Assembly (NCBI RefSeq): GCF_030144855.1
Contig: NC_082719.1
Coordinates: forward strand, 49,290,001-49,354,000
DNA length: 64,000 nucleotides
Direction of reading: 5' to 3'
Source of the DNA: Hypanus sabinus
Taxonomy: Eukaryota
The notes under the pieces: generated by a model
Seen by the model: only the letters and a program-made list of their open reading frames with translations
Database searches by the model: none
Told to the model about the DNA's origin: nothing
Shown: in pieces, positions 5,958-63,348 of the stretch
How the letters are laid out: each line of letters begins with the position of its first letter
Position numbering within the stretch: the first letter of the stretch is position 1
Made by a program: the position numbers and the translations under genes

Positions 5958-6172
5958 TGTGGCGACCCATTTCCTGGCACATCCGAACCAGCTCACAATT
6001 AGATAGCCTACGGGGGTTTGCGAGCACAGAGCTTTGGAGCCTCTGCGCCACGGGGGGCAGGTTGAGGGAGGCTTAAAAGTGAGGCTGAGGATTTCGAATA
6101 AAGTTTTTTCCTTCGACTGCAGTTACCGACTCCATGTCGTAATTTTAGCGCTGCATGTAGCACACCGCTACA
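5958..6172 (+). repeat. 5' LTR of the CsRn1-clade element (215 bp)
   Basis: TGTGGCG...CGCTACA termini, AATAAA at ~6097, roughly 95% identical by eye to 9940-10155. Confidence 0.95.
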
Positions 6173-6174
6173 AT

Positions 6175-6188
6175 TGGTGACCCCGACG
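6175..6188 (+). promoter_or_regulatory. Primer binding site complementary to tRNA-Trp
   Basis: TGGTGACCCCGACG two nt after the LTR; same as the first 14 nt of the avian sarcoma-leukosis virus tRNA-Trp PBS (TGGTGACCCCGACGTGAT). Confidence 0.9.
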
Positions 6189-6212
6189 GTCCAAACGATT
6201 TTTGGACCAGAA

Positions 6213-6902
6213 ATGACCGACGCCGCCTCTGTTCATGCGGTTTCGTTGAAACTGCCGGGTTTCTGGACACAGCGCCCGGACCTATGGTTCCAGCAAGCCG
6301 AAGCCCAATTCCACGTTCGCCAGATCACCTCAGAAGACACCCGCTACTACTATGTGGTGAGCTCCCTCGACCAGGACACAGCGGCCTAGGTCGCGGAGTT
6401 CGTACAGTCGCCCCCTGTAGACGGCAAGTACATGGAATTCAAAGCCCTGCTCCTCAGGACTTTCGGACTCTCACGGCGCGAGCGGGCTGCCCGTTTACTG
6501 CACCTGGATGGCTTGGGCGACAGACCTCCAATGGCTTTAATGAATGAGATGTTGTCTCTGGCCGACGGACACACACCCTGCCTCATGTTTGAGCAGGCAT
6601 TCCTGGAGCAGCTACCCGAGGACATACGCCTGCTGCTGTCCGATGCGGATTTCAGTGACCGCCGGAAGGTGGCAGCCCGGGCGGACTTGCTGTGGAACGC
6701 CAAAAAGGTGAGCGGGGCGTCCATCACACAGATCTCCCAGCCACGCTCCCAGCAGCAAACCAGTCCAGGCCCGGCCGCAGAGCCCGCCAACCCCCAGCCC
6801 AATGAACACTGGTGCTTCTACCACCAGCGGTGAGGCGCAGAAGCCCGCCGTTGTCGCCCGCCCTGCAAGTTCCCGGGAAACGCCAGGGCCAGTCGCCGCT
6901 GA
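6213..6902 (+). pseudogene. gag: gag with CHCC motif and two premature stops (6387-6389, 6831-6833)
   Basis: MTDAASVHAVSLKLPGFW...WFQQAEAQF; C-terminal C-X2-H-X9-C-X3-C (CFYHQR*GAEARRCRPPC). Confidence 0.88.
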
Positions 6903-6932
6903 TGGCTACGGCGGCTGGCCATCGGGATAGCC
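6875..6932 (+). promoter_or_regulatory. Programmed -1 ribosomal frameshift signal (slippery heptamer + stem/pseudoknot)
   Basis: G GGA AAC in the gag frame (6875-6881), 5-nt spacer, 12-bp stem 6887-6898/6909-6920; pol lies in the -1 frame. Confidence 0.85.
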
Positions 6933-9923
6933 TCCTGTATGTGTGGGACAGAAGGTCCGGACACCGGTTTTCGGTCGACACTGGTGCCGAGATCAGTGTT
7001 TTACCTCCGACGAGTTACGACACCCGCAGCAGGGCACCGGGGCCCCCCCTGAGGGCCGTGAACGGCAGCACAGTAAGGACCTATGGCACCCGTCAGGTGC
7101 AGCTACAGTTCGGCTCCAGCCAGTACACGTGGGACTTTACACTGGCCGCCGTAGCCCAACCACTTCTGGGTGCGGATTTTTTGCTGGCTCACAGCCTACT
7201 GGTCGACCTGCCCAGGAAGAGACTGGTACACGCCAAGACCTTTCAGACGTTCTCCCTGGGTGCAGCCCAGTTGCCAGCCCCTCACCTCGGCTCCATCATG
7301 CTGTCCGACAACGACTTCACCAGGGTCCTGGCGGATTTCCCATCGGTTCTGGCACCGCAGTTCACAGCGGCCATGCCCCGACACGGCATACAGCACCACA
7401 TCCCGACCCAGGGACCACACCCCTCCACGCCCGCGCTCGGCGGCTTCCCCCGGACAAGCTCCAACTGGCGAAGGAGGAGTTCCAGAGGATGGAGGAATTG
7501 GGGATCATCTGACAGACCATGGGCCTCCCCCCTGCACATGGTGCCCAAAGCGACGGGAGGCTGGAGACCGTGCGGCGACTACCGCAGGCTGAACGAGGCT
7601 ACCACACCGGACTGCTACCCTGTGCCGCACATTCAGGACTTTGCAGCAAACCTGCACGGCGCACGGATCTTCTCCAAGGTAGATCTCGTCCGAGGGTACC
7701 ATCAAATCCCGATGCATCCTGACGATGTCCCCAAAATGGCTCTCATCACCCCGTTTGGCCTTTCGAGTTCCTCCGCATGCCGTTCGGCCTGAAGAATGCC
7801 GCACAGACGTTCCAGTGGTTAATGGACACGGTGGGACGGGACCTGGACTTCGTGTTCATCTATTTGGACGACATCCTCATAGCCAGCAGCAGTCATCAGG
7901 AGCATCTGTCCCACCTCCGTCAACTCTGCGCCCGACTGAGTGAGTACGGTCTTACAATCAACCCCGCCAAATGCCAGTTCGGACTCAATACCACTGACTT
8001 CCTGGGCCACAGGATTACTAAAGACAGGGCAACCCCTCTGCCCGCTAAGGTAGATGCGGTCCGCCACTTCCCCTGACCCACCACGATCAAAGGCCTTCAG
8101 GAATTCGTAGGTATGGTCAATTTCTACCGCCGCTTCCTCCCTTCAGCTGCCCGGATCATGCGCCCCCTGTTCGCCCTGATGTCGGGTCCGAGCAAGGACA
8201 TTACCTGGGACGAGGAGTCCGCCGCCGCTTTCGTTCAAACGAAGGAAGCTTTGGCTGACGCCGCAATGCTAGTACATCCCAGAATGGACACCCCTACCGC
8301 CCTCACAGTGGACGCATCAAACACGGCAGTCGGTGGGGTGCTGGAGCAGCTCATCGCAGGTCGCTGGCAACCCCTGGCGTTTTTCAGCAAACACCTGCGG
8401 CCACCCGAGCTCAAGTACAGTGCTTTTGACCGGGAACTGTTGGCGCTCTACCTGGCAATCCGGCATTTCAGGTACTTCCTAGAAGGTCGGCCCTTCACCG
8501 CCTTCACGGACCACAAACCGCTTACCTTTGCGTTTACGAAAGCGTCCGACCCCTGCTCGTCCCGCCAGCAACGCCACCTGTCCTACATCTCTGAATACAC
8601 GATGGATGTCCGGCACGTCTCGGGTAAGGACAATGTTGTGGCGGATGCGCTCTCTCGCCCTATCGTTCATGCCCTTTCCCAAGGGGTAGACTTTGAGGCA
8701 CTGGCAGAGGCGCAGCAGGTAGATGAGGAGATTCCGAGTTACAGGACTGCAGTCTCCGGTCTGCAGCTCCAGGACCTCCCCGTAGGCCCGGGTGAGAGGA
8801 CCCTACTCTGTGACGTCACCACCAGCCAGCCCCATCCCGTCGTCCTGACAGCCTGGCGGCGCTGTGTTTTCGACTCCATTCATAACTTGGTGCATCCCTC
8901 CATCCGGACGACTGTCCAGATGGTTTCCAGCAGGTTCCTTTGGCACGGACTCCGCAAACAGGTCAGTGAATGGTCCAAAACATGCATGCACTGCCAGACG
9001 GCCAAGGTGCTGTGGCACACCAAAGCCCCACCACAGCAGTTCCATCCCACCCACCGGCGTTTCGACCACATTCATGTGGATATCGTGGGCACCCTGCCAG
9101 TGTCGCGCAGAGCGCGGCACCTCCTGACTATCGTGGACTGGTTCACAAGATGGCCAGAGGCGGTCCCGCTCACTGAAACCACCTCCGAATCTTGCGCCCG
9201 AGCCCTGATCACCACCTGGATATCTCGCTTTGGTGTACTGGCCCACATTACCTCCGACAGAGGCGCCCAGTTCACCTCCAGCCTGTGGTCAGCTATGGCC
9301 AGCCTTTTGGGGACTCAGCTGCACCACACAACTGCCTACCACCCACAGTCGAATGGGCTAGTGGAGCGTTTCCACCGTCACCTGAAGTCGGCCCTCATGG
9401 CCCGCCTGCGAGGAGCCAACTGGGTGGACGAGCTTCCCTGGGTCCTACTCAGCATCCGCACAGCGCCCAACGATGACCTGCACGCCTCGTCAGCCGAGTT
9501 GGTATACGGCGCGCCCCACCAGCTGGTTCCTACCAGCAAGAGGAAGATCCCACAGCAGTCCTGGGCAGACTACGCGAGAAGCTCAGTAACCTGGCCCCCA
9601 TACCCACTTCACAGCACGGGCAGAACCCGACCTGCGTACCCAAAGACCTGCAGAACTGTAAGTTTCTGTTTGTACGAAGGGCGGGCATCGGCCACCGCTG
9701 CAGCGGCCATACGAGGGGCTGTTTATGGTGCTCCGGAACAACAGGTCCAGGTTCGTGCTGGACGTTGGGGGGAAAGAGGAGGTTTTCACAGTGGACCGCC
9801 TCAAACCGGCCCATGTGGACCTGGCGCAACCGGCCGAGTTTCCAGCACCTCGGCGCAGAGGCCGACCTCCCAAGCAGGTTCCGGCCCAGACTGTGGACAT
9901 TGGGGGGTGTATCGCCGGTTCTT

Positions 9924-9936
9924 GGGGGGGGGGGGG
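9924..9936 (+). promoter_or_regulatory. Polypurine tract
   Basis: G13 run three nt upstream of the 3' LTR. Confidence 0.85.
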
Positions 9937-9939
9937 TTA

Positions 9940-10155
9940 TGTGGCGACCCATTTCCTGGCACATCCGAACCGGCTCACAATTAGATAGCCTATCGGAGAT
10001 TGCGAGCACAGAGCTTTGGAGCCTCTGCGCCATGGGGGGGCAGGGTGAGGGAGGCTTAAAAGTGAGGCTGAGGATTTCGTATAAAGTTTTTTCCTTCGAC
10101 TGCAGTTACCGACTCCGTGTCGTAATTTTAGCGCTGCGTGTAGCACACCGCTACA
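9940..10155 (+). repeat. 3' LTR of the CsRn1-clade element
   Basis: Direct repeat of 5958-6172; its AATAAA is changed to TATAAA. Confidence 0.95.
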
Positions 10156-10745
10156 ATTGGTGACCCCGACGGTCCAAACGATTTTTGGACCAGAAATGAC
10201 CGACGCCGCCTCTGTTCATGCGGTTTCATTGAAACTACAATATAATAATTATATATTACAATTCTGATGGGCCAAGTACACTGTGAAATGTGCCCAAAGG
10301 GATCAGTGAACTTAACTGCTTGTGACAGAAGAGGAAGCAATATCTTGATGAGTGGACATTTTGGAAGGCATTTCAGGTTAATGCCAGGAGAGGGAAAAAG
10401 CAAAAACACAAGTAGCACACCCTTTTGCGGCACTGCCAAGGAAATAAAATTGTGTTGTTCTGACACACAGTCAATGCTAGTTGCTCTGAAACAACAAGAT
10501 TAATATGGTGGTTCACTATTGATGGATTCCAATAAATACTTTTGAGGCCCTAATCTCCAATCTCTTGCACTGTACAAAAATGAAATAAGGCAGGAGAAGT
10601 AGTTGATGTGGTGTAGAGAGGCTGTTTGGGATTAATGGCCATCATTCTACTAGTCTCAAGATCGTCATGAGGAAAGACTCATTTGATGATACTAAATCAG
10701 TGATTTTCAAAAGTTGATTGGGAGAGCTGTTTACAGGATGTTTGA

Positions 10746-24960: not shown

Positions 24961-25177
24961 TGCGGTGAACTACGTGTGCCTGTCTGGACACGCCCCCTGC
25001 TGACTGCTCCTGTGGCTCCTCCCACAGGCCCCTGTATAAAGGCGATCAGAGCCTGGGGCCGGTCTCTCAGTCTCCAGGATGTAGTATGGTGGTCACTCAC
25101 TGCTGGTTCCTTCTTCCAGTCAATAAAAGCCGATATCTCGCCTTTACGTCTCAGAGTGAGTTATTGATGGTGCATCA
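24961..25177 (+). mobile_element. Solo LTR (family of 51834-54173), TSD CTCCT
   Basis: TG...CATCA; TATAAA at 25035, AATAAA at 25122; CTCCT at 24956-24960 and 25178-25182. Confidence 0.93.
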
Positions 25178-35065: not shown

Positions 35066-35718
35066 TCTTTATTAGAATAACTCTACCTTCAAAATAATTT
35101 CCAAGCAAACTCATCACCAAACTCCAGACCCTGGGGTCAATGTCACCATCTGGAAATGGATCTCTGATATCCTGACCAACAGACCACATTCAGTAAGAAC
35201 AGGTAGCAACAGCTCTGCCATGATTATTCTAAGCACAGGTGCTCTAACAAGGCTGTGTCCTCAGACCCCTTCTCTGCTCGCTATACACTCATGGCAGTAT
35301 GGATAGCTTCTGCTTTGACTCCATCTACAGGTTTGCAGATGATACCACCATAATGGGCCAAATCTCAAATAGTGATGAGTTGACGTACAGGAAGGACAGA
35401 GAGAGCTTAGTGACATGGCATCATAGCAACAGACTTTCCCTCAATGTAAGGCCAATAAAGGAGCTGATCATTGGCTTCAGAAAGGGGTAGAGTCTGTGCA
35501 TATGCCCTGTCTACATAAATGGTGTAGATTTGAGAGGGTTGAGAATTTAATGTTCTGGAGAGACCATCCTGATCCAACCACACTGATGTCACAGCTAGGA
35601 AGGCTTATCATTGCCTCTACTTCCTAAAGAAATTTGCCAAGTTCCCATCAACCTTTACCAATTTTCATTGATGCACCATAAAGAGCATTCTATCTGGAAG
35701 CACAAGGGCTTGTTCTGA

Positions 35719-36250
35719 CCATTGCTCTGCCCATGACCACAGGAAACTTCAGAGAGTTGTGGCCATTGCTCTGCCCGTGACCACGGGAAACTGCAGAGAG
35801 TTGTGGCCATTGCTCTGCCCGTGACCACAGGAAACTTCAGAGAGTTGTGGCCATTGCTCTGCCCGTGACCACGGGAAACTGCAGAGAGTTGTGGCCATTG
35901 CTCTGCCCGTGACCACGGGAAACTGCAGAGAGTTGTGGCCACTGCTCTGCCCGTGACCACAGGAAACTGCAGAGAGTTCTGGCCACTGCTCAGCCCGTGA
36001 CCACAGGAAACTGCAGAGAGTTCTGGCCACTGCTCAGCCCGTGACCACAGGAAACTGCAGAGAGTTGTGGCCACTGCTCTGCCCGTGACCACAGGAAACT
36101 GCAAAGAGTTGTGGCCACTGCTCTGCCTGTGACCTCAGGAAACTGCAAAGAGTTGTGGCACTGTTCAGCCCGTGACCACAGGAAACTGCAAAGAGTTGTG
36201 GCCACTGTTCAGCCCGTGACCACAGGAAACTGCAGAGAGTTGTGGCCACA
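35719..36250 (+). repeat. 44-bp minisatellite, about 12 copies
   Basis: Unit CCA(T/C)TGCTCTGCCCGTGACCAC(A/G)GGAAACTGCAGAGAGTTGTGG starting at 35719, 35763, 35807... Confidence 0.97.
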
Positions 36251-49500: not shown

Positions 49501-51833
49501 TTTTTGAATCCAAGTGTTCAAGCCATCAGGTCTTGGAGATCACCTTTCACACCACTGACTTGCTTAAACCAAATTTTCCAGTGAAACATAGAATATCTAT
49601 GTCTGTGCAATCAGAGTATCAGGCTAAACTAGTGCTTATCTGTTTGCACAAAGTCCATATCTGTCTATTCCCTGATACAGTTGGTACTTAATTCCTCTTC
49701 AGCATTATTCAGTATTTATGGGCAGCTCATCGTTCTTTTCTTTTACTATAAAAACTCATCTGGAATATGTTTAATTCCTCTGCTATTTCCTCATTCCTTA
49801 TTATTATATCCCTAGCTTCATGTTCTGTAAGGTAGCTTGCTTCCTTTTCATGGGCTCAAAAAAGCTCTTATTCTAAGTATTTTTTATATTTCTCATTTGG
49901 TTTAAGGTTATTTTCTCCCTCCTTGTTTTTTTGTTGGCCTTCTTTTGCAGGATTCTGGTTTTATCACATTGTTTCCGCCTACCACTTGTGTCACTTCATC
50001 TCAATATCCTTCTTAATTTACTTGGTTAGCCATAAATGGTTCATTCTGCAAAATCACGATTGCTCATTCCAACCTTCTAATAATCCTTCCTTTTCATTGG
50101 ACAGTATTTTGACTAGCATTCATAAATCAGCCCTTTAGGTTTCTACTGCTCCTTTCTTAACAAGTAACCAATAACCTGCTACTTTCTTAACAAATAACCA
50201 ATTTACAGTCCACTTTAACCAATTCTATCCTCATTCCTTTGCATTTCCCCTTAAGCTTGATACAGTTGTTTCAGACTCAAGTTTCCCCTTCTCAAGCTGC
50301 ATCTTAAATCCTAACATGCTGTCTCCTCTTGCTACTAAGAGATCTTTTACTCAGTGACCATTTATAGAACTTATTTCATTATTTATTACCAGATTTAAAC
50401 TCATAGATTGGAATAGGTTTCTAGAGCAATACATCTGGTTCCATGATGTATTGCTCTGGGAAACTATTCCAAATACATTCTATTTTCTTGGCTATCAGTT
50501 CCAATTTGATTAACCTGATCAATACGAAGACTGAAGTTACCCATGGTTTATATATTATTCATTTTACCCACCTTCTGGTTCAGCCGTGACTGGCTTCATG
50601 GATGCGGACTCACTTCGGTGAGCTTCAGTTCTGATGTTATTTGCTTACTTTTATTGTTTACATGATTTGTGTTTTTTCTGCACATTGGGTGCTTGATGGT
50701 CTTTTTTAAATGGGTTTTATTGGGTTTCTTTGTTTTGCAACTGCTGTAAGGAGACGAATCTCAAGGTTGTATATAGTATGCATACTCCGATAATAAATGT
50801 GCTTGGAACTTTGAACATCCATTATTTCTTGATTTATACTATTTTGGGGCATTATTTGGAGGACTAAATGCTATTCTCCAACTGTTTTCTTCCTTTTGAC
50901 ATTTTATCTGGAGACAAATCATCTCTCAGTCCTGTCAGCTCAAAGAAAAAGAATTCCAGTTACTCTAGCCTATTCTTGCAAATGAATTTCCCCATTCATG
51001 AAAAGATCTTCCCAAGTATCTCCTGCATATTTTCAGGATTTTTATTTCCTTTCTCTAACATAGTACCCACAATTGGATGTATTACTCTGCCACCTGCCTT
51101 AGATTCAGATTTATTTATCGCATGTATGTCGAGACATTGAAATGCATCAATTATATTAACAACTAATACAGCCAAGAATGTGCTGGGGACAAGTGCTGCC
51201 ATACAATCCAACCTTGTTCTTCTTATTCCTGTTATTACCTCTTTACTGTATAGGAATGTTGTAATCGTTGTGTATCTTGTACACCTAAATCCAAATCATT
51301 GATCTCCACACAGAGTGGATTTTCCTGAACTACTGACCTTCAAGAGAATGTTATTGGGCATCAACTGTTATGGGAAAGATAACTTAACAGTTGACTGTGA
51401 AGACAGTAGTAAATCAAAGCAACAAAACCAATAGCCAAAAAACAGAACAGGTTTTATAGTAGAGAAAATGATAAATGTCACCTTTATTTGAAGTAAAACT
51501 GGAATCCAAAGTTGATATTGGAAATTGTGGAACTGACACTAGGCTCAATGTTTTAGAGAAGCTAGCTAGATTCATAACTTTATTATACAGTTTCATTTTC
51601 TCATTTATTGAACACAATATATAAATTGGAATGTTCAATTACTCTTCCACTGCAACTTGTCCACTTTGTTTTACTTTCATCAAGCAATTGCACACATCAC
51701 TTCAGGAGTAAGGGATCCCGGTCTGGTTGAAAGGGACTATCAAGCATCACAAGGGAGGCAAAGTAATTGAGCCATCAAGGAAAGTGACACAGAATTAGAA
51801 CAGGTCAAATAACAAAAGGCATGTCTGCGATGT

Positions 51834-52050
51834 TGATGCACCATCAATAACTCCCGGAAATGGGAGGCGAACGATAGGCTTTTATTAGCTGCAAAAGACC
51901 ACCTTTCGCAGCAAGAGACCACCACACAACATCCTGGAGACTGAGGGAGGAGCAGTACCTTCAACCACCTTTATACAGGGGTCTGTGGGAGGAGCCACAG
52001 GAGCAGTCAGCAGGGGGGCATGTCCAGACAGGTATATGTAGTTCAACACA
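51834..52050 (-). repeat. 3' LTR
   Basis: Reverse complement of the 60220-60434 LTR family, preceded on (-) by the PPT AAGGGGGGGGGTGAA. Confidence 0.93.
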
Positions 52051-52109
52051 TTCACCCCCCCCCTTGTTTTAAAAGAGTCCCCATGGGGCGAAGTTTCTTA
52101 CAAGTATAT

Positions 52110-53805
52110 TTACAGGTTAAGTCTATCGGGTGGTCGAATCTGTCGCTGCGATCTACGTAGCACCGGTGGTGATTGCACCAGTGACGGTGGGTTGTGCTGG
52201 CTCCGGCCTGACTCGAGGTGTCAGCCCATTAGGCGTCAGTAATCCCTCATGCGTGTGCGAGGCACCCGGTATGGGAGAGTCATGAGGAGTCTGTTTAGGG
52301 CTTGGTGTGCGCGGTGTTTCGTGGATATACACCTCGGTGGGTACGGGGTTCATAGTCACCGTGGAGTGTTCGGGGTATGGGTCTGGCGCTCCTGCGGGCA
52401 CCAGGTCGCGGACAGAGACCGTGTCCTCCCGCCCATCAGGTAAGACCACGTAGGCATACTGGGGTTTGCATGAAGTAGGTGAACCCTCTCGACCATCGGG
52501 GAGTATTTATTGCTCCTCGCATGTTTCCGGAGCAGCACTGGCCCTGGGGACGTCAGCCAAGCCGGTAGGGTGGTCCCAGTGGCAGACTTCCTGGGAAAAG
52601 AAAAGAGTCGCTCATGAGGGGTGGCATTGGTGGACGTGCATAACAGGGAGTGGATGGAGTGGAGCGCCTCGGGGAGGACCTCCTGCCAGCGAGAGACCCG
52701 CAACCCTTTGACCTAAGTGCTAAGAGTGTGGCCTTCCACACTGTGGCATTCTCCCTCTCCACCTGTCCATTTCCCCAGGGATTATAGCTCGTGGTCCTAC
52801 TAATAGCAATGCCCCTAGCCAGCAGGTAATGGCACAGCTCGTCACTCATAAAGGAAGACCCTCTATCACTGTGTATATAGCAGGGATATCCAAACAGAGT
52901 GAAGAGCTGGCGCAGGACTTTTGTGACAGATGTGGCAGTGGTATTGGGACAGGGGATGGCAAAGGGGAATCGCAAGTACTCATCGATTATGTTGAGAAAG
53001 TAGACATTGTGGTCAGTGGAGGGAAGGGGGCCCTTAAAGTTGACACTCAGTCGCTCAAAGGGGCGGGTGGCCTTGATAATTTGTGCCTTTATGGGATGGT
53101 AGAAGTGTGGTTTGCACTCAGCGCAGACTTGGCAGTCCCTGGTCATCGTCCTGATGTCCTCAAGGGAGTAAGGCAGGTTCGGGGCTTTCATGAAATGGTA
53201 AAATCGGGTGACTCCCGGGTATATGCATGGAGGGCATATAGCCGGTCGAGCTGCACACTGGCACACGATCCCCGGGATAGGGCATCAGGGGGCTCATTGA
53301 GCCTTCCAGGCTGGTACAGGATATCATAGTTGTAGGTGGAGAGTTCTATTCTCCACCGCAAAATTTTATCATTTTTGATTTTGCCCCGCTGTTGGTTGCT
53401 GAACATGAACGCAACCGAGCCGAGCGCTGGTCGGTCAGCAAGGCGAATCTTTTGCTGGCGAGATAGTGCCTCCAGTGCCTAATAGCTTCCACTATGGCCT
53501 GGGCTTCTTTCTCCACCGCGGAGTGCCGAATTTCAGGGCCTTGAAGGGTATGAGAGAAGATTGCTACCGGCCTTCCTGCCTGATTGAGGGTAGCAGCCAG
53601 CGCAAAATCGGAGGCGTCACTCTCTACTTGGAAGGGAATGGTCTCGTCCACCGCATGCATCGCTGCTTTGGCAATGTCCCCTTTAATGTGGCTGAAGGCC
53701 GTGCGGGCCTCGGCTGAGAGGGGAAATGCGGTGGACTTGACCGGGGGCAGGCCTTGTCTGCGTAGTGAGGTAGTGAGGGACCCATAGGGTGTAATAGGAA
53801 AACCT
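52110..53805 (-). pseudogene. pol: pol remnant: end of RT, RNase H, integrase
   Basis: FSYYTLWVPHY, FQVESDASDFAL, EKEAQAIVEAIRHWRHYL, LTDQ, PDALSR, CQVCAECK, FKGPLP, IHSDRGSSF, GNGQVER. Confidence 0.9.
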
Positions 53806-54001
53806 GTCAGGACACGCCCCTCTGCTGACTGCTCTTGTGGCTCCTCCCACAGACCCCTGTATAAAGGCGATTGGAGGCACTGCTTCTCCCTCATTCTCCA
53901 GGATGTTGTGTGGTGGTCTCTTGCTGCTAAAGGTGGACTCTTGCAGCTAATAAAAGCCTATCGTTCGCCTCCCGTCTCCGAGAGTTATTGATGGTGCATC
54001 A
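53803..54001 (+). repeat. Inverted internal LTR copy missing the first ~17 nt
   Basis: CCTGTC...GGTGCATCA; TATAAA at 53860, AATAAA at 53949. Confidence 0.92.
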
Positions 54002-54002
54002 A

Positions 54003-54173
54003 TTTTATTAGCTGCAAGAGACCACAATTAGCAGCAAGAGACTACCACACAACATCCTGGAGACTGAGGGAGGAGCAGTGCCTCCAATTGCCTTTATACA
54101 GGGGTCTGTGGGAGGAGCCACAGGAGCAGTCAGCAGAGGGGCGTGTCCAGACAGGTATATGTAGTTCACCACA
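54003..54173 (-). repeat. 5' LTR truncated immediately after AATAAAA
   Basis: On (-) reads TGTGGTGAAC...TTGCAGCTAATAAAA. Confidence 0.92.
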
Positions 54174-56254
54174 AATGTGTAAAGGACATCAAAATAACAA
54201 GGACAATACTGAACACAGCATGGCAAAGAACATGGAGGAAAACAAATGTTTTTATAAAGGAAGTCTATGGGCCAGTAAAACTGGGTTGGGTAAGAAGATG
54301 GCAACTGAATATTGCACACAAGGAACAGCTCCTCATGTAATTTCACCCAGAATTTAACTAAGCAATAGGTGGATAATGCATTGTTAAGGGCCAGCTCGGA
54401 GACATCTTAAGTTTCTTAAGGAAATACATGAACTAATTGCAGGGGCTCGTGCAAATCTTCTGGAAATCACGACATCCAGAAAGGAATGATTAATCAAGCA
54501 GAAAGGAAACAGGGTAGATGAAGAATGAAATAAATTTAGGGGTTATGACTTATAATAAATTGAAGCACTTCAGCAATGTTCTGCAGCACTGAGCAGTGAA
54601 ACAGATACTGCGATGGATTCAGGGGACAGAATAGTGAGGTGTCATACTTCAGCAGTGTGCCCACTTTTGTAATTCTCTGTGCAATCTGTTCATGACAGAA
54701 CATAATATTATAGAATATTGCATAATTCCAGAAAAAAACAAAGGTGGAGAAAATGGTATTTACTGGATTACAAGACATGATGAAGCAGGCATTTTCTTAA
54801 TGAAAATACATGGCTGTTAAGTGATAAAAACAAAATGATGGCAATAGTGGAAATCAGAAATAAAAACTGAAAATGCTAGGAATATTCAGAAGGTCTGGCA
54901 GCTACTGTAGAATTAGAAACAGGGATAATGTAAATTAGTTGAAAATGGGGAAATAAAAAAAAATTCTGATTGTCTACCCTATCTATGCCTCTCATAAGTT
55001 TGCAAATTTCTATCAGAACTCCCTTCAGCCTCTAACGCTCCAGAGAAAACAGCTCAAGTTTATCCAACTTTTTCTTACAGCTCATACTCTCTAATCTAGC
55101 CAGCATCCTGGTAAAGGATCTGTGCACAACCTATCATTTCTTTCCAAATCAAACTCGGTGTACTATCAAAGACAGTGTGGGAGGGCACTGTGATAGGGGG
55201 GATAACAGTGGAACACATTGAAAGCACAATGCTGTCTCAACAAACATTGGGGAGTGGAGTGGGAGGCGGGTGATGGAGTGATGGTGGTTGGTAACACTAA
55301 AAAGAAAGTGTGGCTATGAAAAGTGTATTACTGTCTTAAGTCTATGCGTATGAGCCAAGTCATCAGCGAACAAGCACTGGCTGTCAACTGTACGGGTTGT
55401 TACTAGTAGGGTGTCGGCAGTGACCAACATATTCTCTAAATGATCTGCAGGCAGTACACACAGTAGAGGTGCCATGGGTCCACACTAGATCTTTTAACTA
55501 TCCACAAAATGGACACACAAGGAATGAGGGCTAAGCACTATGGATAGATAAAACACTTCAAAGTTTAAAAAAAAGGTTTCTTTATGCTTGTTTTGATTTT
55601 TTTATTTGCCAATTCCTTTCATTCCACATCCTGATTCCTACCACCACTGGGATCAGTTCCCACAAACCCCAATTCTCTGCCTACAGCATCTCAGTCCTGT
55701 TGCACTCCTATAAGACCAGTGTCCAGATGACCTCTCCTTTCTTCTGTTTAGTAACTATTAACATAGGAACATAAGAATAAATAAAGTAAAATAAACAATG
55801 GAATATAAAATAAACAATTAACAACATGGAGCACCCAGATCAAATGCTTGCAGCCTCCAAAGTGATTGCATGATGATTCATCCAAAGCTTGACCTTCGAT
55901 TGTGAAGGTGAATAGTCATTAAATTGAGCTTTGCAGTGACCAGACCTATTCGTGTGCCAGAATAAAGCATGCGTTTTAACAATCATGGCTTGATAATGCA
56001 TGTATTGCCAAAAATCCTAACACAATAGAAAATCTATCATATCTATCTGGATCTCTCTAGAAACAGATTGGGAGTTTATATTTAACCCACTTAACTCTAG
56101 TCTTTGTCATGCAGCTATGTGAAAAAATATTGTATGTGTCAAACCATGAATTGAGTAGTTCATTCTCTAGGTGCATAAAAATTAAGTAAACGAGAATGTA
56201 AGGGGATGGTATACTTATCATTCAAAGCCAGAAGAGATTCAAAAGTAATTTTTC

Positions 56255-58750: not shown

Positions 58751-59318
58751 TGCTCAAATGAGAACCTCTCCTTCAAAGAGGAATAATCTCAAAGGGAAAA
58801 TTATGAACGGACACCACATAATAAATGAGATATGCCAACTGTCCACTTTCTACAGCACATGGTTTTATTTCTGCATAATTAAAGCTCAATTTATTTCTTG
58901 TTGCATGCATTATAAATTATTATTAGAATAGCATAATTTTCTCTATTTTTTCATAGGTCTGTGTCCAAAGTTTTAATTTTCTTCACTTAACCTAATACCA
59001 TTGTAAAATGTAGAAGAATGGAAGAGTCAATCACTCCAACTAAATCTTCAATGGCTTAAATCCTCTTTCTAAAATCTAACACTCTGAATGGGTTAGGGAA
59101 ACGTTGGATTTAATTTAATGCCTTTGGAATTAAAACTTCTGAAATTCTCTTATTGATATACCTGCACCAAAAGAGCTCTGAATTTCAATGCTAGTTTGGT
59201 ATTCTGCATGCATAACCCAAAGCAGGCATCTTTAGAAATGTGACTCTGGATCCTCTGCAACCAAATGTAAAATTCAGTCAAAATGACTGTTCTACTGTTA
59301 ATGCTACACCTTGTTGTA
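58751..59318 (+). repeat. ~570-bp local duplication, copy 1
   Basis: Collinear with 62775-63348, e.g. GGACACCACATAATAAATGAGATATG, CCTTTGGAATTAAAACTTCTGAAA, CTGTTCTACTGTTAATGCT. Confidence 0.92.
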
Positions 59319-59322
59319 ACAA

Positions 59323-59544
59323 GACAAGAAAATCTGCAGATGCTGGAAATCCAAACAACACACAAAAATGCTGGAAGATCTCAGCAGGCCAGGTAGCATC
59401 TATGAAAAAGAATAAACAATCTATGTATCTGGCCGAGACCCTTCATCAGGACTGGAAAAAATGATCTGAAGTTCTGGCCTGCTGAGTTCCTCCAGCATTT
59501 TGTGTTTGTTGCTTGGCTTTCCAGCATCTGCAGATTTACTTGTC
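59323..59544. mobile_element. Palindromic Penelope-derived element with ~70-bp inverted arms and a hammerhead-core remnant
   Basis: GACAAGAAAATCTGCAGATGCTGGAAA / TTTCCAGCATCTGCAGATTTACTTGTC; CCTGATGAAGGGTCTCGGCC on (-) at 59450->59431. Confidence 0.7.
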
Positions 59545-60219
59545 CTAGAGTATAATCTGACTGGTACATAGGTAATTTACACCAGTCTTTTAATATCCAT
59601 AACAAATTTACTTCCTAATCACTTTTCTACTCCTAATCATTAACAATCTATTTCCCCTTGTTCTGATCTCTCTGCCAGTTGCATTAGTTCCATTCTGTCT
59701 ACAATACCTGTACCCATCATAATTTTAAATAGATTTACTAGAATATATGTAAGCGTCCTCCGTTCCAAGGAGAACATCCTCAGCTTCTCCAGTCTATCCA
59801 CATAACTCAAGACCCCAGCTCTGGAATCATTTTGCTAAATTTCTCCTGCAACCTCTCTAAAGAATCCAGATGTTTCCTAAAAATGCAAACACCGAGAAAA
59901 GGACACAATGTTCCAGTTGTGGCCAAACCATTGTTTTATTGAGGCTCATTGTGATTTCCTTCTCCACACACCTGTCAGTTGATTTATCTCTATGCTCTAT
60001 TTTACACTCTTTTTGGTTAAATAAGGATGACTGACTTCTATTTCTTTATCCTTCTCTCTCATGGGAATGCATCTATACTGTTAATGAAACATTGTCAATT
60101 CATCATGTTAATTAACACACACCAAATGGTGACTCTTCCTCAATTGACTAGTTTAACTTTAGATGGGCCCTATATCCATTTATTACAATGCTCCTCCACT
60201 GATATCTTTCCTCTATGAC

Positions 60220-60434
60220 TGTGGTGAACTACATATACCTGTCTGGACACGCCCCTCTGCTGACTGCTCCTGTGGCTCCTCCCACAGGCCCCTGTATAAA
60301 GGCGATTGGAGGCACTGCTCCTCCCTCAGTCTCCAGGATGTTGTGTGGGGATCTCTTGCTGCTGACTGCTCTCTTCCAGTGAATAAAAGCCTATCTCTCG
60401 CCTCACGTCTCCGAGAGTTATTGATAGTGCATCA
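60220..60434 (+). mobile_element. Solo LTR, TSD ATGAC
   Basis: TGTGGTGAAC...GTGCATCA; ATGAC at 60215-60219 and 60435-60439. Confidence 0.93.
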
Positions 60435-62184
60435 ATGACCTTGGTTCATTCCCCAGAACTCAGTTCAGTAATGCTATCTTCCTTAATGGACCAGAAACAA
60501 ACTAATCAAGAAAGTTTTTAATATAGTTCTGAAAGTGAGGCACTGTCTTAGCTGCAAATCATATTCTGAGAGGTTATGAATATATTTTTAATGAAGAAAG
60601 AGGAAAACCACCTTCCCTAAATTCACTTCAGATTACAATGACCCATTCCTGTCTCTTGATCAAATGTTCCCTGAGATATTAAGTGATTATTATTTTAGTT
60701 TTCCAAGTTATTTTAAAGCAAGCTACAATAAAATTTTTGGTTCTTTGGGAAAAGAACCAATTTTTTCAGATGTTTCCCACCACCATAACATAGACGTTAA
60801 AAATAAATGGTCAGTAGGAAAGGAGAAATAGATCAGTGAAAATGTGGAAGTAAGAGAAAGAGAGATGTAGAGTCATGGCATATCTATATATATGTCATGC
60901 TACATTTTAGAAATACCTCTTTTTTAGCATGTTGTATTTGAAGATAACAATTGTTTGTACAGTATATGGAGATAAATTCATTAAATAATATTTTTCAACC
61001 CCTGAGAGGGAGGATAAAATAATTTTTATGCATTTTAAAATACTTGCTTTGTTACCTAGGGGCAAAATCTGACACATTTCTTTTGAAATTGTGTTACCAG
61101 AGTTCTACATCCATTACTCACTTCCACATTGGAGAAATGCAAAACCACTGCCTTGTGAGCATCAAATCTCAGGCTCAAAGCAAAGTTTTAAACCAGACAG
61201 CAGCAATTGTTGCTCAGAGTCCAGTTCTCAACCTACAAATGGAAAGGTGTACCCAATTAATTAATTTCATGAACATCCAGAATGCATTGCTTTAAAAGAT
61301 AGAAAAGTAATGCGATAAATTTATTGGCTTAATATCTGGCGCATACAATGTTGATGTCCTAGCTAATAATATCTATGGGCAGGACAAAATGGTGACTAGA
61401 AACCCTACCTTTACGTGATAAGGAGGGACAGCCACATTTCTCCAGGCTTCATTAAACTCTGCTGCCAGCAGATCCCACTGATGCCTTAATTGAGTGTAAG
61501 TAGATGTGTAATCCAAACTTGTCTGTCACCTATGCCTCTCTGTGCCCATTTCAGGTGGACTGCTAAATGTTAACTTGATTTGGCCATTTGAATCAGCTGG
61601 TATCCCACATAGATTGCAAATCCAAAACAACTTCCCAGCTTTTTCTTTGGAAATTAAAATCTCCTAAATGAGTAACATATTAATAACTCATTTTATTAAT
61701 CCTGAAACACCTTATTTAATGTCTTATCTTGCAAATGTCTTTCGGCAAGCAGACATACGAACATAACTGTAATAGAATTAAAATGAATAATATGTTCCTG
61801 TATTTTCCATGAAGATTATGCTAAATAAAAAAATTATTAAATAATCGCGTAAGAGTAGAGAATAGATTTTCCATGGATGGTGGGGGGAAACTTAGTGAAT
61901 TACAACCTCAGCATAAACCTAATGTACACTGTCATTTATGTCATTTTTTTCAGCATTCCTGCCACTTTTCTACACAAGTGATCAATGAACAGGAAATAGC
62001 TCCTTGGAAATTCTAACTGATTAATGTACACAAAAATCTCCTCCTTCATAATAGAAGTTCACCTACAATGTTGGGAATATTGTGGCTTCATTGAATTCTG
62101 GTCAGGATTAATGATGCAAACATCATTTTCACAAGCAATAGGGTAAATGGATTTAAAGTCATGCTGCGTAAGATTTTTTTTCCT

Positions 62185-62364
62185 CTTCACGCCATGTGGC
62201 GTACTGGGCAGCCATTGCCATTTCTTTAGCACTTGTCTCCTTTTTTATGAGGTCGAGTTGATAGCTTGATAGCACCGAAGAAAAGTGTACAAAAAGCCAG
62301 CTGGATTTGAACCCGGGACCACTTGCCTTGATGTTCAGAGTGGATGCCAGTAAACCACGCCGGC
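62185..62364 (-). mobile_element. tRNA-derived SINE
   Basis: On (-): GCCGGCG, A-box TGGTTTACTGG, B-box GGTTCAAATCC, then a non-tRNA body. Confidence 0.6.
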
Positions 62365-62774
62365 TATATACTACTGTACATATCTATAAAAACTTAATAT
62401 TTACTTCTCACTGATATTTCAAATTATGTTAAGAAAGTAATTTGAGACACATATGCAGTCCATATTAGTGAGCCCAAAAAAAAGTCCAATTTATTTAAAG
62501 GTTTGCATTACTGAAGCAGAGATGGGTTATTAAATTTCTTTTGATCAGACCAATACCAGAAGTAATTACGTAGTAATGTTGTACTTTCCATTCACTATTG
62601 CTTAGTGAGCATGCAATCTATAACATCCTTAATTGGAGCAATGCAGCCAATCCGCATTCATTATTAGATAAGATAGCAGGCTGAGATATGTTCTTTGGCA
62701 TTTATAGTTCATATAGGAAAATATCTGCCGTGCTTGTAAGGATGTTTCCAAAGCTGTGAACTAAGAAACTCAAC

Positions 62775-63348
62775 TTCTCAAATTAGAACCTCTACTTCAA
62801 AATGGAATAATCCCAAAGGGAAAATTTATGAAAGGACACCACATAATAAATGAGATATGCTAACTGTCCACTTTATACTGCACATAATTTTATTTCCGCA
62901 TAATTAAAGCTCAATTTATTTCTAGTTGCATGCATTATAAATAAACATTAGAATAACATAATTTTCTCTATTCTTTCATAGGTCTTTGTCCAAAGTTTTA
63001 ATTTTCTTCACTTAACATAACACCATTGTGGTCTAAAATCCTGAAGAATGAGAGAGCCACTTACTCCAACTACATCCTCAGCAGCTTCTATCCTCTTTCT
63101 AAATCTGATACTCTGATTGGATAAGGGGCAGGTAGAATTTAATTCAATACCTTTGGAATTAAAACTTCTGAAACTCTTTTAACACTTTCCTTGCACCAAA
63201 ACGGCACTGAATTTCAATGTTACTTGGGTGTTCTGGATGCATACCTAATACCGACTTCTTTAAAAATATGACTCTCGATCCTATTACCAGCGCCAAATGG
63301 AAAATTGAGCCATAATGGCTGTTCTACTGTTAATGCTCCACCTTGTTT
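62775..63348 (+). repeat. ~570-bp local duplication, copy 2
   Basis: Collinear with 58751-59318. Confidence 0.92.

Follow-up and report, generated by a model that had tools for sequence, protein, structure and literature searches.

A rearranged retrotransposon in a 64,000-nucleotide stretch of DNA (the window, whose positions are used throughout) raises the question of how reverse transcription is primed in the family to which it belongs. The element, whose closest named proteins in a protein search come from the stingray Hypanus sabinus (98–99% identity), is read on the minus strand. As the first-pass annotation had described and the sequence confirms, its LTR runs to 54003, adds one T, continues as a reversed LTR from the terminal CA, and then joins pol. 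The parts of the element are as follows.

54174..54178, minus strand: 5′ copy of the 5-bp target duplication (ACATT), read from the sequence.
54003..54173, minus strand: partial LTR, bases 1–171, comprising U3 and R to the end of AATAAAA (CAGCTAATAAAA), placed by LTR alignment; TATAAA lies at 54098–54093 and the initiator A at 54065.
54003..54017, plus strand: 15 bases that read as the native primer-binding site (TTTTATTAGCTGCAA).
54002, plus strand: lone spacer A between LTR end and primer site (T on the minus strand), also present in native copies.
53803..54001, plus strand: inverted LTR, from base 18 to the terminal CA, with TATAAA at 53860, TCATT at 53891 and the initiator A at 53893.
53941..53955, plus strand: tract in R with AATAAAA at its end, complementary to the primer site.
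52110..53802, minus strand: pol remnant (RT end, RNase H and integrase) with several frameshifts and stops.
52051..52070, minus strand: polypurine tract.
51834..52050, minus strand: complete 3′ LTR, TG...CA.
51829..51833, minus strand: 3′ copy of the target duplication (ACATC, one mismatch to ACATT).

The intact 3′ LTR and the target duplication are additions to the first-pass annotation. The element lacks gag, protease and most of RT. Its inverted LTR meets pol at the RT end with a 1-base overlap, and after TTTTATTAGCTGCAA the reversed R continues in place of the native TTTTAAAACATG. It is a rearranged Gypsy retrotransposon that was inserted at once as a whole unit. The palindrome is not a product of assembly, a concern attached to the original description, because its arms are 91–94% alike and each carries its own substitutions. 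Two LTRs of other subfamilies of the same family, apparently solo, lie at 24961–25177 and 60220–60435. A second Gypsy element at 5958–10236, which we take to be CsRn1-like, has direct LTRs and an ordinary TGG primer site near 6176 and serves as a control from the same window.

The joint had been taken to mean that the native primer site of the family is complementary to the poly(A)-signal segment of its own LTR. In the 4.0-Gb genome searched, the LTR used as an unbiased query gave 10 loci, of which two lead into gag, each with the reading CA-A-TTTTATTAGCTGCAA-TTTTAAAACATG. The LTR end followed by TTTTATT has 4012 genome matches compared to 4 for the reversed control, and 30 loci read among the matches listed comprise 27 native copies, 2 fold-backs and 1 unrelated locus. 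With the two copies from the LTR query, this gives 29 native copies. The tract lies 46–49 bases upstream of the LTR end, and in 22 of the 29 the site is a perfect 14–16 base complement of the copy's own AATAAAA-ending tract, in the same register; the other 7 have mismatches or have lost the tract. The search pattern fixed the first 7 bases of the site, and the pairing test rests on the next 7–9 bases, which vary by subfamily on site and tract alike in five variants (AGCTGCAA, GACTGGAAG, AGCAGCAA, AGCTGGAA and GACTGAAAG).

The prediction thus holds for intact copies, where one A is followed by 14–16 complementary bases, and the sites foretold for the window's subfamily (ATTTTATTAGCTGC, in native copies) and for the 24961-type LTR (ATTTTATTGACTGGAAG) were both found. 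The site foretold for the 60220 type (TTTTATTCACTGGAA) failed: it occurs in 7 copies only and matches the tract in none of them. The actual partner pair near this type is CAGCGAATAAAA with TTTTATTCGCTGG, of which the 60220 tract looks like a CpG-decayed form. Among 15 loci read of the 19 matches to the CGCTGG site, 9 are of the CGCTGG type, with perfect pairing in 4 of them and the 60220 tract in one; co-variation is absent from the 6 CGCWGCAA copies. An LTR end followed by TGG, as expected of a tRNA site, occurs 1661 times in the genome, and none of 10 sampled cases leads into gag; 9 of the 10 are solo LTRs in which the TGG is host DNA. Fully read copies have LTRs of 188–217 bases and a 5-bp duplication. 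Unbroken copies have a single Gag-PR-RT-RH-IN frame with two CCHC motifs and no chromodomain, and an open-frame copy carries the RNase H acidic motifs. Judged from its sequence, this is a Gypsy family with a primer-binding site that pairs with its own LTR and not with a tRNA.

The same arrangement extends well beyond the stingray. A protein search found 1456 relatives among 7981 candidates scored, the named ones being from sharks and rays, Actinostola, Trichuris, Ischnura and Apostichopus. Contigs of metagenomes and genomes supplied 89 loci, of which 33 start close to the beginning of Gag and 28 include sufficient DNA upstream. A perfect 9–18 base repeat lies upstream of gag in 24 of these 28 testable distant loci (shuffle p ≤ 0.03; near-copies included) and is absent from 4, two of which are contigs whose ends overlap inside coding sequence. 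Moreover, 23 families were compared, 18 of them distant families chosen for having the repeat and 5 from this genome. The site directly follows CA-A, one base past the LTR end, in 23 of 23, and duplex pairs 5–13 are complete in 21 of the 23 own pairings compared to 0 of 506 cross-family pairings. The tract contains AATAAA in 11 families, ATTAAA in 6 and neither in 6. No relatives were found among viral contigs. Animal Gypsy elements of this kind also occur on contigs filed in bacterial genome bins (L229–L236), which are probably host DNA.

The fold-back joint is likewise recurrent. Its pattern has 457 genome matches and none in reversed controls, which, together with the counts for the LTR end and TTTTATT, upholds the view that a chance rearrangement is unlikely. 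The native pattern has 3504 matches, some double-counted, so that about one-eighth of the insertions keeping the primer site carry the joint. The census of 91 joints consists of the window copy and 90 of the 100 places among the matches listed. Breakpoints differ mostly from copy to copy and across subfamilies.

The reading favoured here is that a cut leader primes: the front 34–74 bases of the element's own RNA, cut at the end of AATAAAA, probably prime the minus strand, and it is very probable that the tract primes in some form. Transcription would start at the initiator, 33–34 bases past TATA. The RNA would then fold and bring tract and primer site into a duplex. Cutting at the last A of AATAAAA, or in some cases perhaps as many as 7 bases before it, would free a 3′ end. 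RT would extend this end by one T and 47–54 bases of minus-strand strong-stop DNA, and the primer would remain attached long enough for copying. The joint could be fixed in two ways. The growing strand may copy the chimera through the primer and then transfer by R homology onto U3, or the plus strand may switch template across the same repeat; integrase would then insert the fixed joint. The cutting enzyme is assumed, by analogy with Tf1, to be the element's own RNase H. In RNA folding the leader forms the tract/primer-site duplex (z −3.7), which appears in 9 of 9 leaders folded. Compared with Rfam, including the known small self-cleaving ribozymes, the leader gave one chance match, far below the cut-off.

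Duplex pair 10 is G-C in 21 of 23 families and pair 11 is A-U in 20 of 23, with adjacent pairs varying, and the four bases just past the tract are GCCT or ACCT in 14 of 23; these may be recognition marks for the cut. A second stem directly past the tract was not significant in a longest-stem test (p 0.86); scored as a fixed 4-bp stem it occurs in 10 of 17, which is significant over a null mean of 2.6, but slid controls reach 9 and 7. A primer built by splicing was considered on account of an AG 11–10 bases before the tract end in most families, and was rejected: the pairing extends upstream of the AG, and three families lack it.

The ends of the joints on the initiator side bear on where the primer begins. 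The distance from TATAAA to the initiator A is 33–34 bases in all 25 LTRs, of 28, in which both were found, while the distance from initiator to tract end varies from 34 to 74 bases in the same set. On the primer side of the 91 joints, 63 extend to LTR base 1–3 and so include all of U3 (the window copy among them), 13 end after 17–20 bases, and 15 end in between, one of these being an alignment artefact in a G run. In six of the 14 partial read-throughs the end lies no more than 3 bases from the initiator (binomial p ~3e-5), some with 1–8 bases of microhomology; of the rest, 5 end at other points of R and 3 close to the start of the LTR, and bases 20–105 hold no ends. The first-pass annotation had placed the start about 50–60 bases upstream (TATAAA 53860, TCATT 53891), and the read-throughs that end at the initiator back this. 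Several joints reach into the polypurine tract. In the most frequent subfamily the 16-base site is followed by the R-derived AAG 267 times compared to 8 times by C or G, which indicates that strands read on into R sequence. One copy with an otherwise normal 5′ end (L093) has three extra R-derived bases (AAG) past its primer site.

Complete U3 in 63 of 91 joints would be absent from a primer that starts at the initiator. This means that either one more transfer is needed or the plus strand switched without a primer. The 13 joints that end after 17–20 bases are equally expected from a shorter primer.

The ends on the poly(A)-signal side bear on the cut. Since tract and primer site are exact complements, the joint itself is blind to the cut position, and it is the arm stops that can show it. 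Among 55 partial left arms, 24 start inside the tract, 18 further into U5 and 13 upstream. Seventeen start in the last 7 bases of the tract or at the next base (two of them snap-backs scored on the other arm), and 7 start at −11 to −16. The upstream starts include 1 at the initiator and 3 that lie ten bases past it. Twelve copies are snap-backs with a second reversed LTR end nearby. Seven of them stop at the last A of AATAAAA, with landing sites that differ, and 5 of these 7 stops at −1 have their last 1–2 bases matching the landing site too; the other five stop at −3, −9, +2, +10 and +22, and none of the 12 stops at the initiator. The arm stops fit a template whose 5′ end would lie at the end of AATAAAA. 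Those at −4 to −16 may reflect cuts elsewhere or a stall that followed transfer. The stops are spread (snap-backs at −1, other joints at −4 to −7, seven at −11 to −16), and stalling due to self-complementarity may account for some of the pile-up. In addition, the four left arms at the initiator or ten bases past it imply that some templates are uncut. The three independent arms that start exactly 10 bases past the initiator (L064, L091 and L112) possibly reflect a second transcription start or a preferred RNase H cut.

It is unlikely, though conceivable, that the tract primes from another source, either the LTR end at the 3′ end of the RNA or an early-ended 5′ LTR transcript trimmed to AATAAAA, with the 5′ end of the template left whole. 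The 63 joints with unbroken U3 and the several that run into the polypurine tract appear as from a 3′-end primer, and the four left arms that start at or near the initiator suit a whole template. However, a whole template predicts strong-stop ends at the initiator, which are seen in 1 of 55 left arms and in 0 of 12 snap-back arms. A 3′-end primer also leaves the six read-throughs that end at the initiator unexplained, and an early-ended short transcript accounts for those six but not for the stops at the tract.

Plain Tf1 geometry, in which the packaged RNA begins at or just before the tract and the primer is about 16–20 bases long, is improbable. It has a precedent in Tf1, which uses its first 11 bases according to parts of PMC7175516, and it would account for the 13 joints that end after 17–20 bases. 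Three of these 13 (L131, L132 and L137) share a breakpoint with a 13-base microhomology inside pol, which is either a hot spot or a small amplified derivative, and the joint search pattern is blind below about 18 bases; both points weaken the support from the short joints. The fixed TATA-initiator spacing beside a variable initiator-tract length, and the six read-throughs at the initiator, also argue against such a short RNA.

There is similarly little probability that the repeat serves some other purpose, for instance concealing the 5′ poly(A) signal, while a host RNA primes and the joints are all template switches across the repeat. AATAAA or ATTAAA does lie within the tract in 17 of 23 families, and a plus-strand switch gives the window copy in two jumps, equal to the primer route. 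Yet in all 23 families the site lies one base past the LTR end, the position at which a primer has to stop; its sequence follows each family's LTR, so that no single host RNA fits; none of the 10 sampled TGG sites leads into gag; and stops at the initiator are not predicted. A role of the duplex in hiding the 5′ poly(A) signal is plausible in itself; in 6 of 23 families the tract has neither AATAAA nor ATTAAA.

Whether the joints arose before integration was examined at 61 long loci, of which 35 have a rearranged block bounded on both sides by LTR termini; the remaining 26 lack two recognisable LTR ends and were left out of the duplication scoring. A 5-bp duplication (at most one mismatch) flanks 31 of the 35 units, 23 of them exactly, compared to 8 of 350 control positions, and the ends that it flanks are often both reversed LTR termini. 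Given the established behaviour of integrase, the joints would therefore have formed before integration, during reverse transcription. Joints made by later rearrangement of chromosomal copies, or as assembly palindromes, are highly improbable and largely refuted already: inverted repeats do favour replication errors and 26 of 61 long loci are unscored, but the duplications surround 31 of 35 scored units, often around two reversed LTR termini, and the joint arms have diverged by about 4–5%. Six minis of 219–244 bases (L098, L101, L109, L121, L133 and L136) consist of LTR pieces only (U3-R, reversed U5 and U5), each with a target duplication, and are integrated snap-back products. RNA contigs of four runs offered no usable ends and no strand-changing joint.

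For the window copy itself, the junction had been explained as a primer/strong-stop joint or a template switch. Self-priming is supported at the level of the family, but the window's inverted arm is not plain strong-stop DNA, because it is about 200 bases long and passes the initiator into U3. On one route, the minus strand would fold from pol onto its own U3, copy the LTR and the attached primer, and move onto U3. On the other, the plus strand would switch across the repeat and later return to pol. LTR bases 147–148 are AG in the window's inverted and 3′ LTRs and TT in its partial LTR. The TT is closer to the TC seen in two further copies, a pattern that favours another template for the partial R. 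A separate origin of the R part received no support from variant sharing over 13 copies (mismatches R 37/747, U3 62/1368); the window copy is the only one with shared R differences (two).

Experimental proof of self-priming, as far as the available sources go, comes from fission-yeast Tf1, with its relatives and a few plant lineages added by inference only. In Tf1 the RNA's first 11 bases anneal to the primer site and RNase H makes its cut between bases 11 and 12 (as given in parts of PMC7175516 and PMC4600332), and about half of the cDNAs keep the copied primer (parts of PMC11042837). Like Tf1, Tf2 (Schizosaccharomyces pombe), Tj1 (S. japonicus) and the Tf1/sushi chromoviruses, as portrayed in those excerpts, the ray family has no tRNA site and a primer site that pairs with its own LTR RNA, and like Tf1 it would need a cut to free the primer. 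Unlike in the Tf1 described there, the paired bases would end a leader of 34–74 bases, usually over the poly(A) signal, and would not be the first bases of the transcript. The ray family and its relatives also differ from Tf1 in a 26–66 base loop between tract and primer site. For plant TAR elements (Houba, Osr-1; Copia) and Tcn1 (Gypsy), the prediction of self-priming rests on complementarity of 10 bases or more between post-LTR sequence and LTR, a likeness to the present family, and the accessible portion of the source (PMC6317226) gives no primer-end mapping. Unlike the family described here, TAR and Tcn1 belong to another superfamily or to a chromovirus lineage.

Within Ty3/Gypsy, the ray family resembles the Mag lineage in its short LTRs, one reading frame, 5-bp duplication and two CCHC motifs in Gag, the last being a feature of Mag Gag. 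Culex Mag elements have tRNA-Leu, -Ser or -Arg primer sites (in the text available of PMC3286476), which this family lacks; the comparison with Mag is by description only. Motif searches of two papers' supplements gave no match to a named Mag sequence, and no established name for the clade was found in the papers and supplements searched.

The pol order PR-RT-RH-IN, a best solved relative in Ty3 RT, direct TG...CA LTRs, a polypurine tract and a short target duplication place the family in Ty3/Gypsy. Membership of the Tf1/sushi group, with which the element had been linked, is not borne out: there is no chromodomain, and RT-RH identity to the elements of this genome that carry one is only 20–37%. 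A quick RT-RH tree of 47 rows, built without named references, puts 26 relatives on a long branch (support 100), a grouping by construction since they were chosen by similarity. They fall outside the 5 chromodomain-bearing rows (support 100), and a sister link has a support of 37. Among the chromodomain loci of the same genome, 2 of 14 have a 10–11 base site that pairs about 300 bases before the LTR end, which is the sushi pattern. DIRS elements have a tyrosine recombinase and inverted ends as their normal structure, and were excluded by the DDE integrase and the direct LTRs of intact copies.

A search of the full-text literature found no published description of this primer site or joint; subscription papers, Repbase and GyDB lay outside its scope, and an earlier remark is possible. 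The site is not described in the accessible text of PMC3601003, PMC5443660, PMC6934838, PMC8220671, PMC8556966, PMC10886601 and PMC13524379, or in the available parts of the supplements of PMC6238403 and PMC8556966.

The observation is real, the self-complementary site is family-wide and clade-wide, and the joints, as genomic fossils, make the steps of self-priming testable. Self-priming would thereby extend to a separate lineage whose hosts include sharks and rays, sea anemones, nematodes, insects and sea cucumbers. Its geometry would differ, with an internal tract, a long leader as primer and an overlap with the poly(A) signal. The fossil joints also yield candidate positions: a start at LTR base 106–109, a cut at AATAAAA and a strong-stop of about 47–54 bases. 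If this is true, such elements would be independent of tRNA supply and out of reach of tRNA fragments that silence through the primer site; annotation software searching for a tRNA site would overlook them. With slightly more doubt than belief, we propose a large animal-wide Gypsy lineage that primes with a long capped leader cut at its own poly(A) signal. A single conserved hairpin would conceal the 5′ poly(A) signal while transcription proceeds and also set the place of the cut. About one-eighth of the insertions in this genome that retain the primer site would then be frozen intermediates, from which start, cut and strong-stop length could be read off with no experiment.

Other repeats were also noted. 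For a repeat pair at window 58791–63243, no RT-RH match was found. A tandem array with a period of 44 bases occupies window 35624–36239, and elsewhere (L286–L301; G000 C110, ~10.59–10.87 Mb) RNase H matches of another Gypsy family recur at steps of about 13 kb in a long tandem array.
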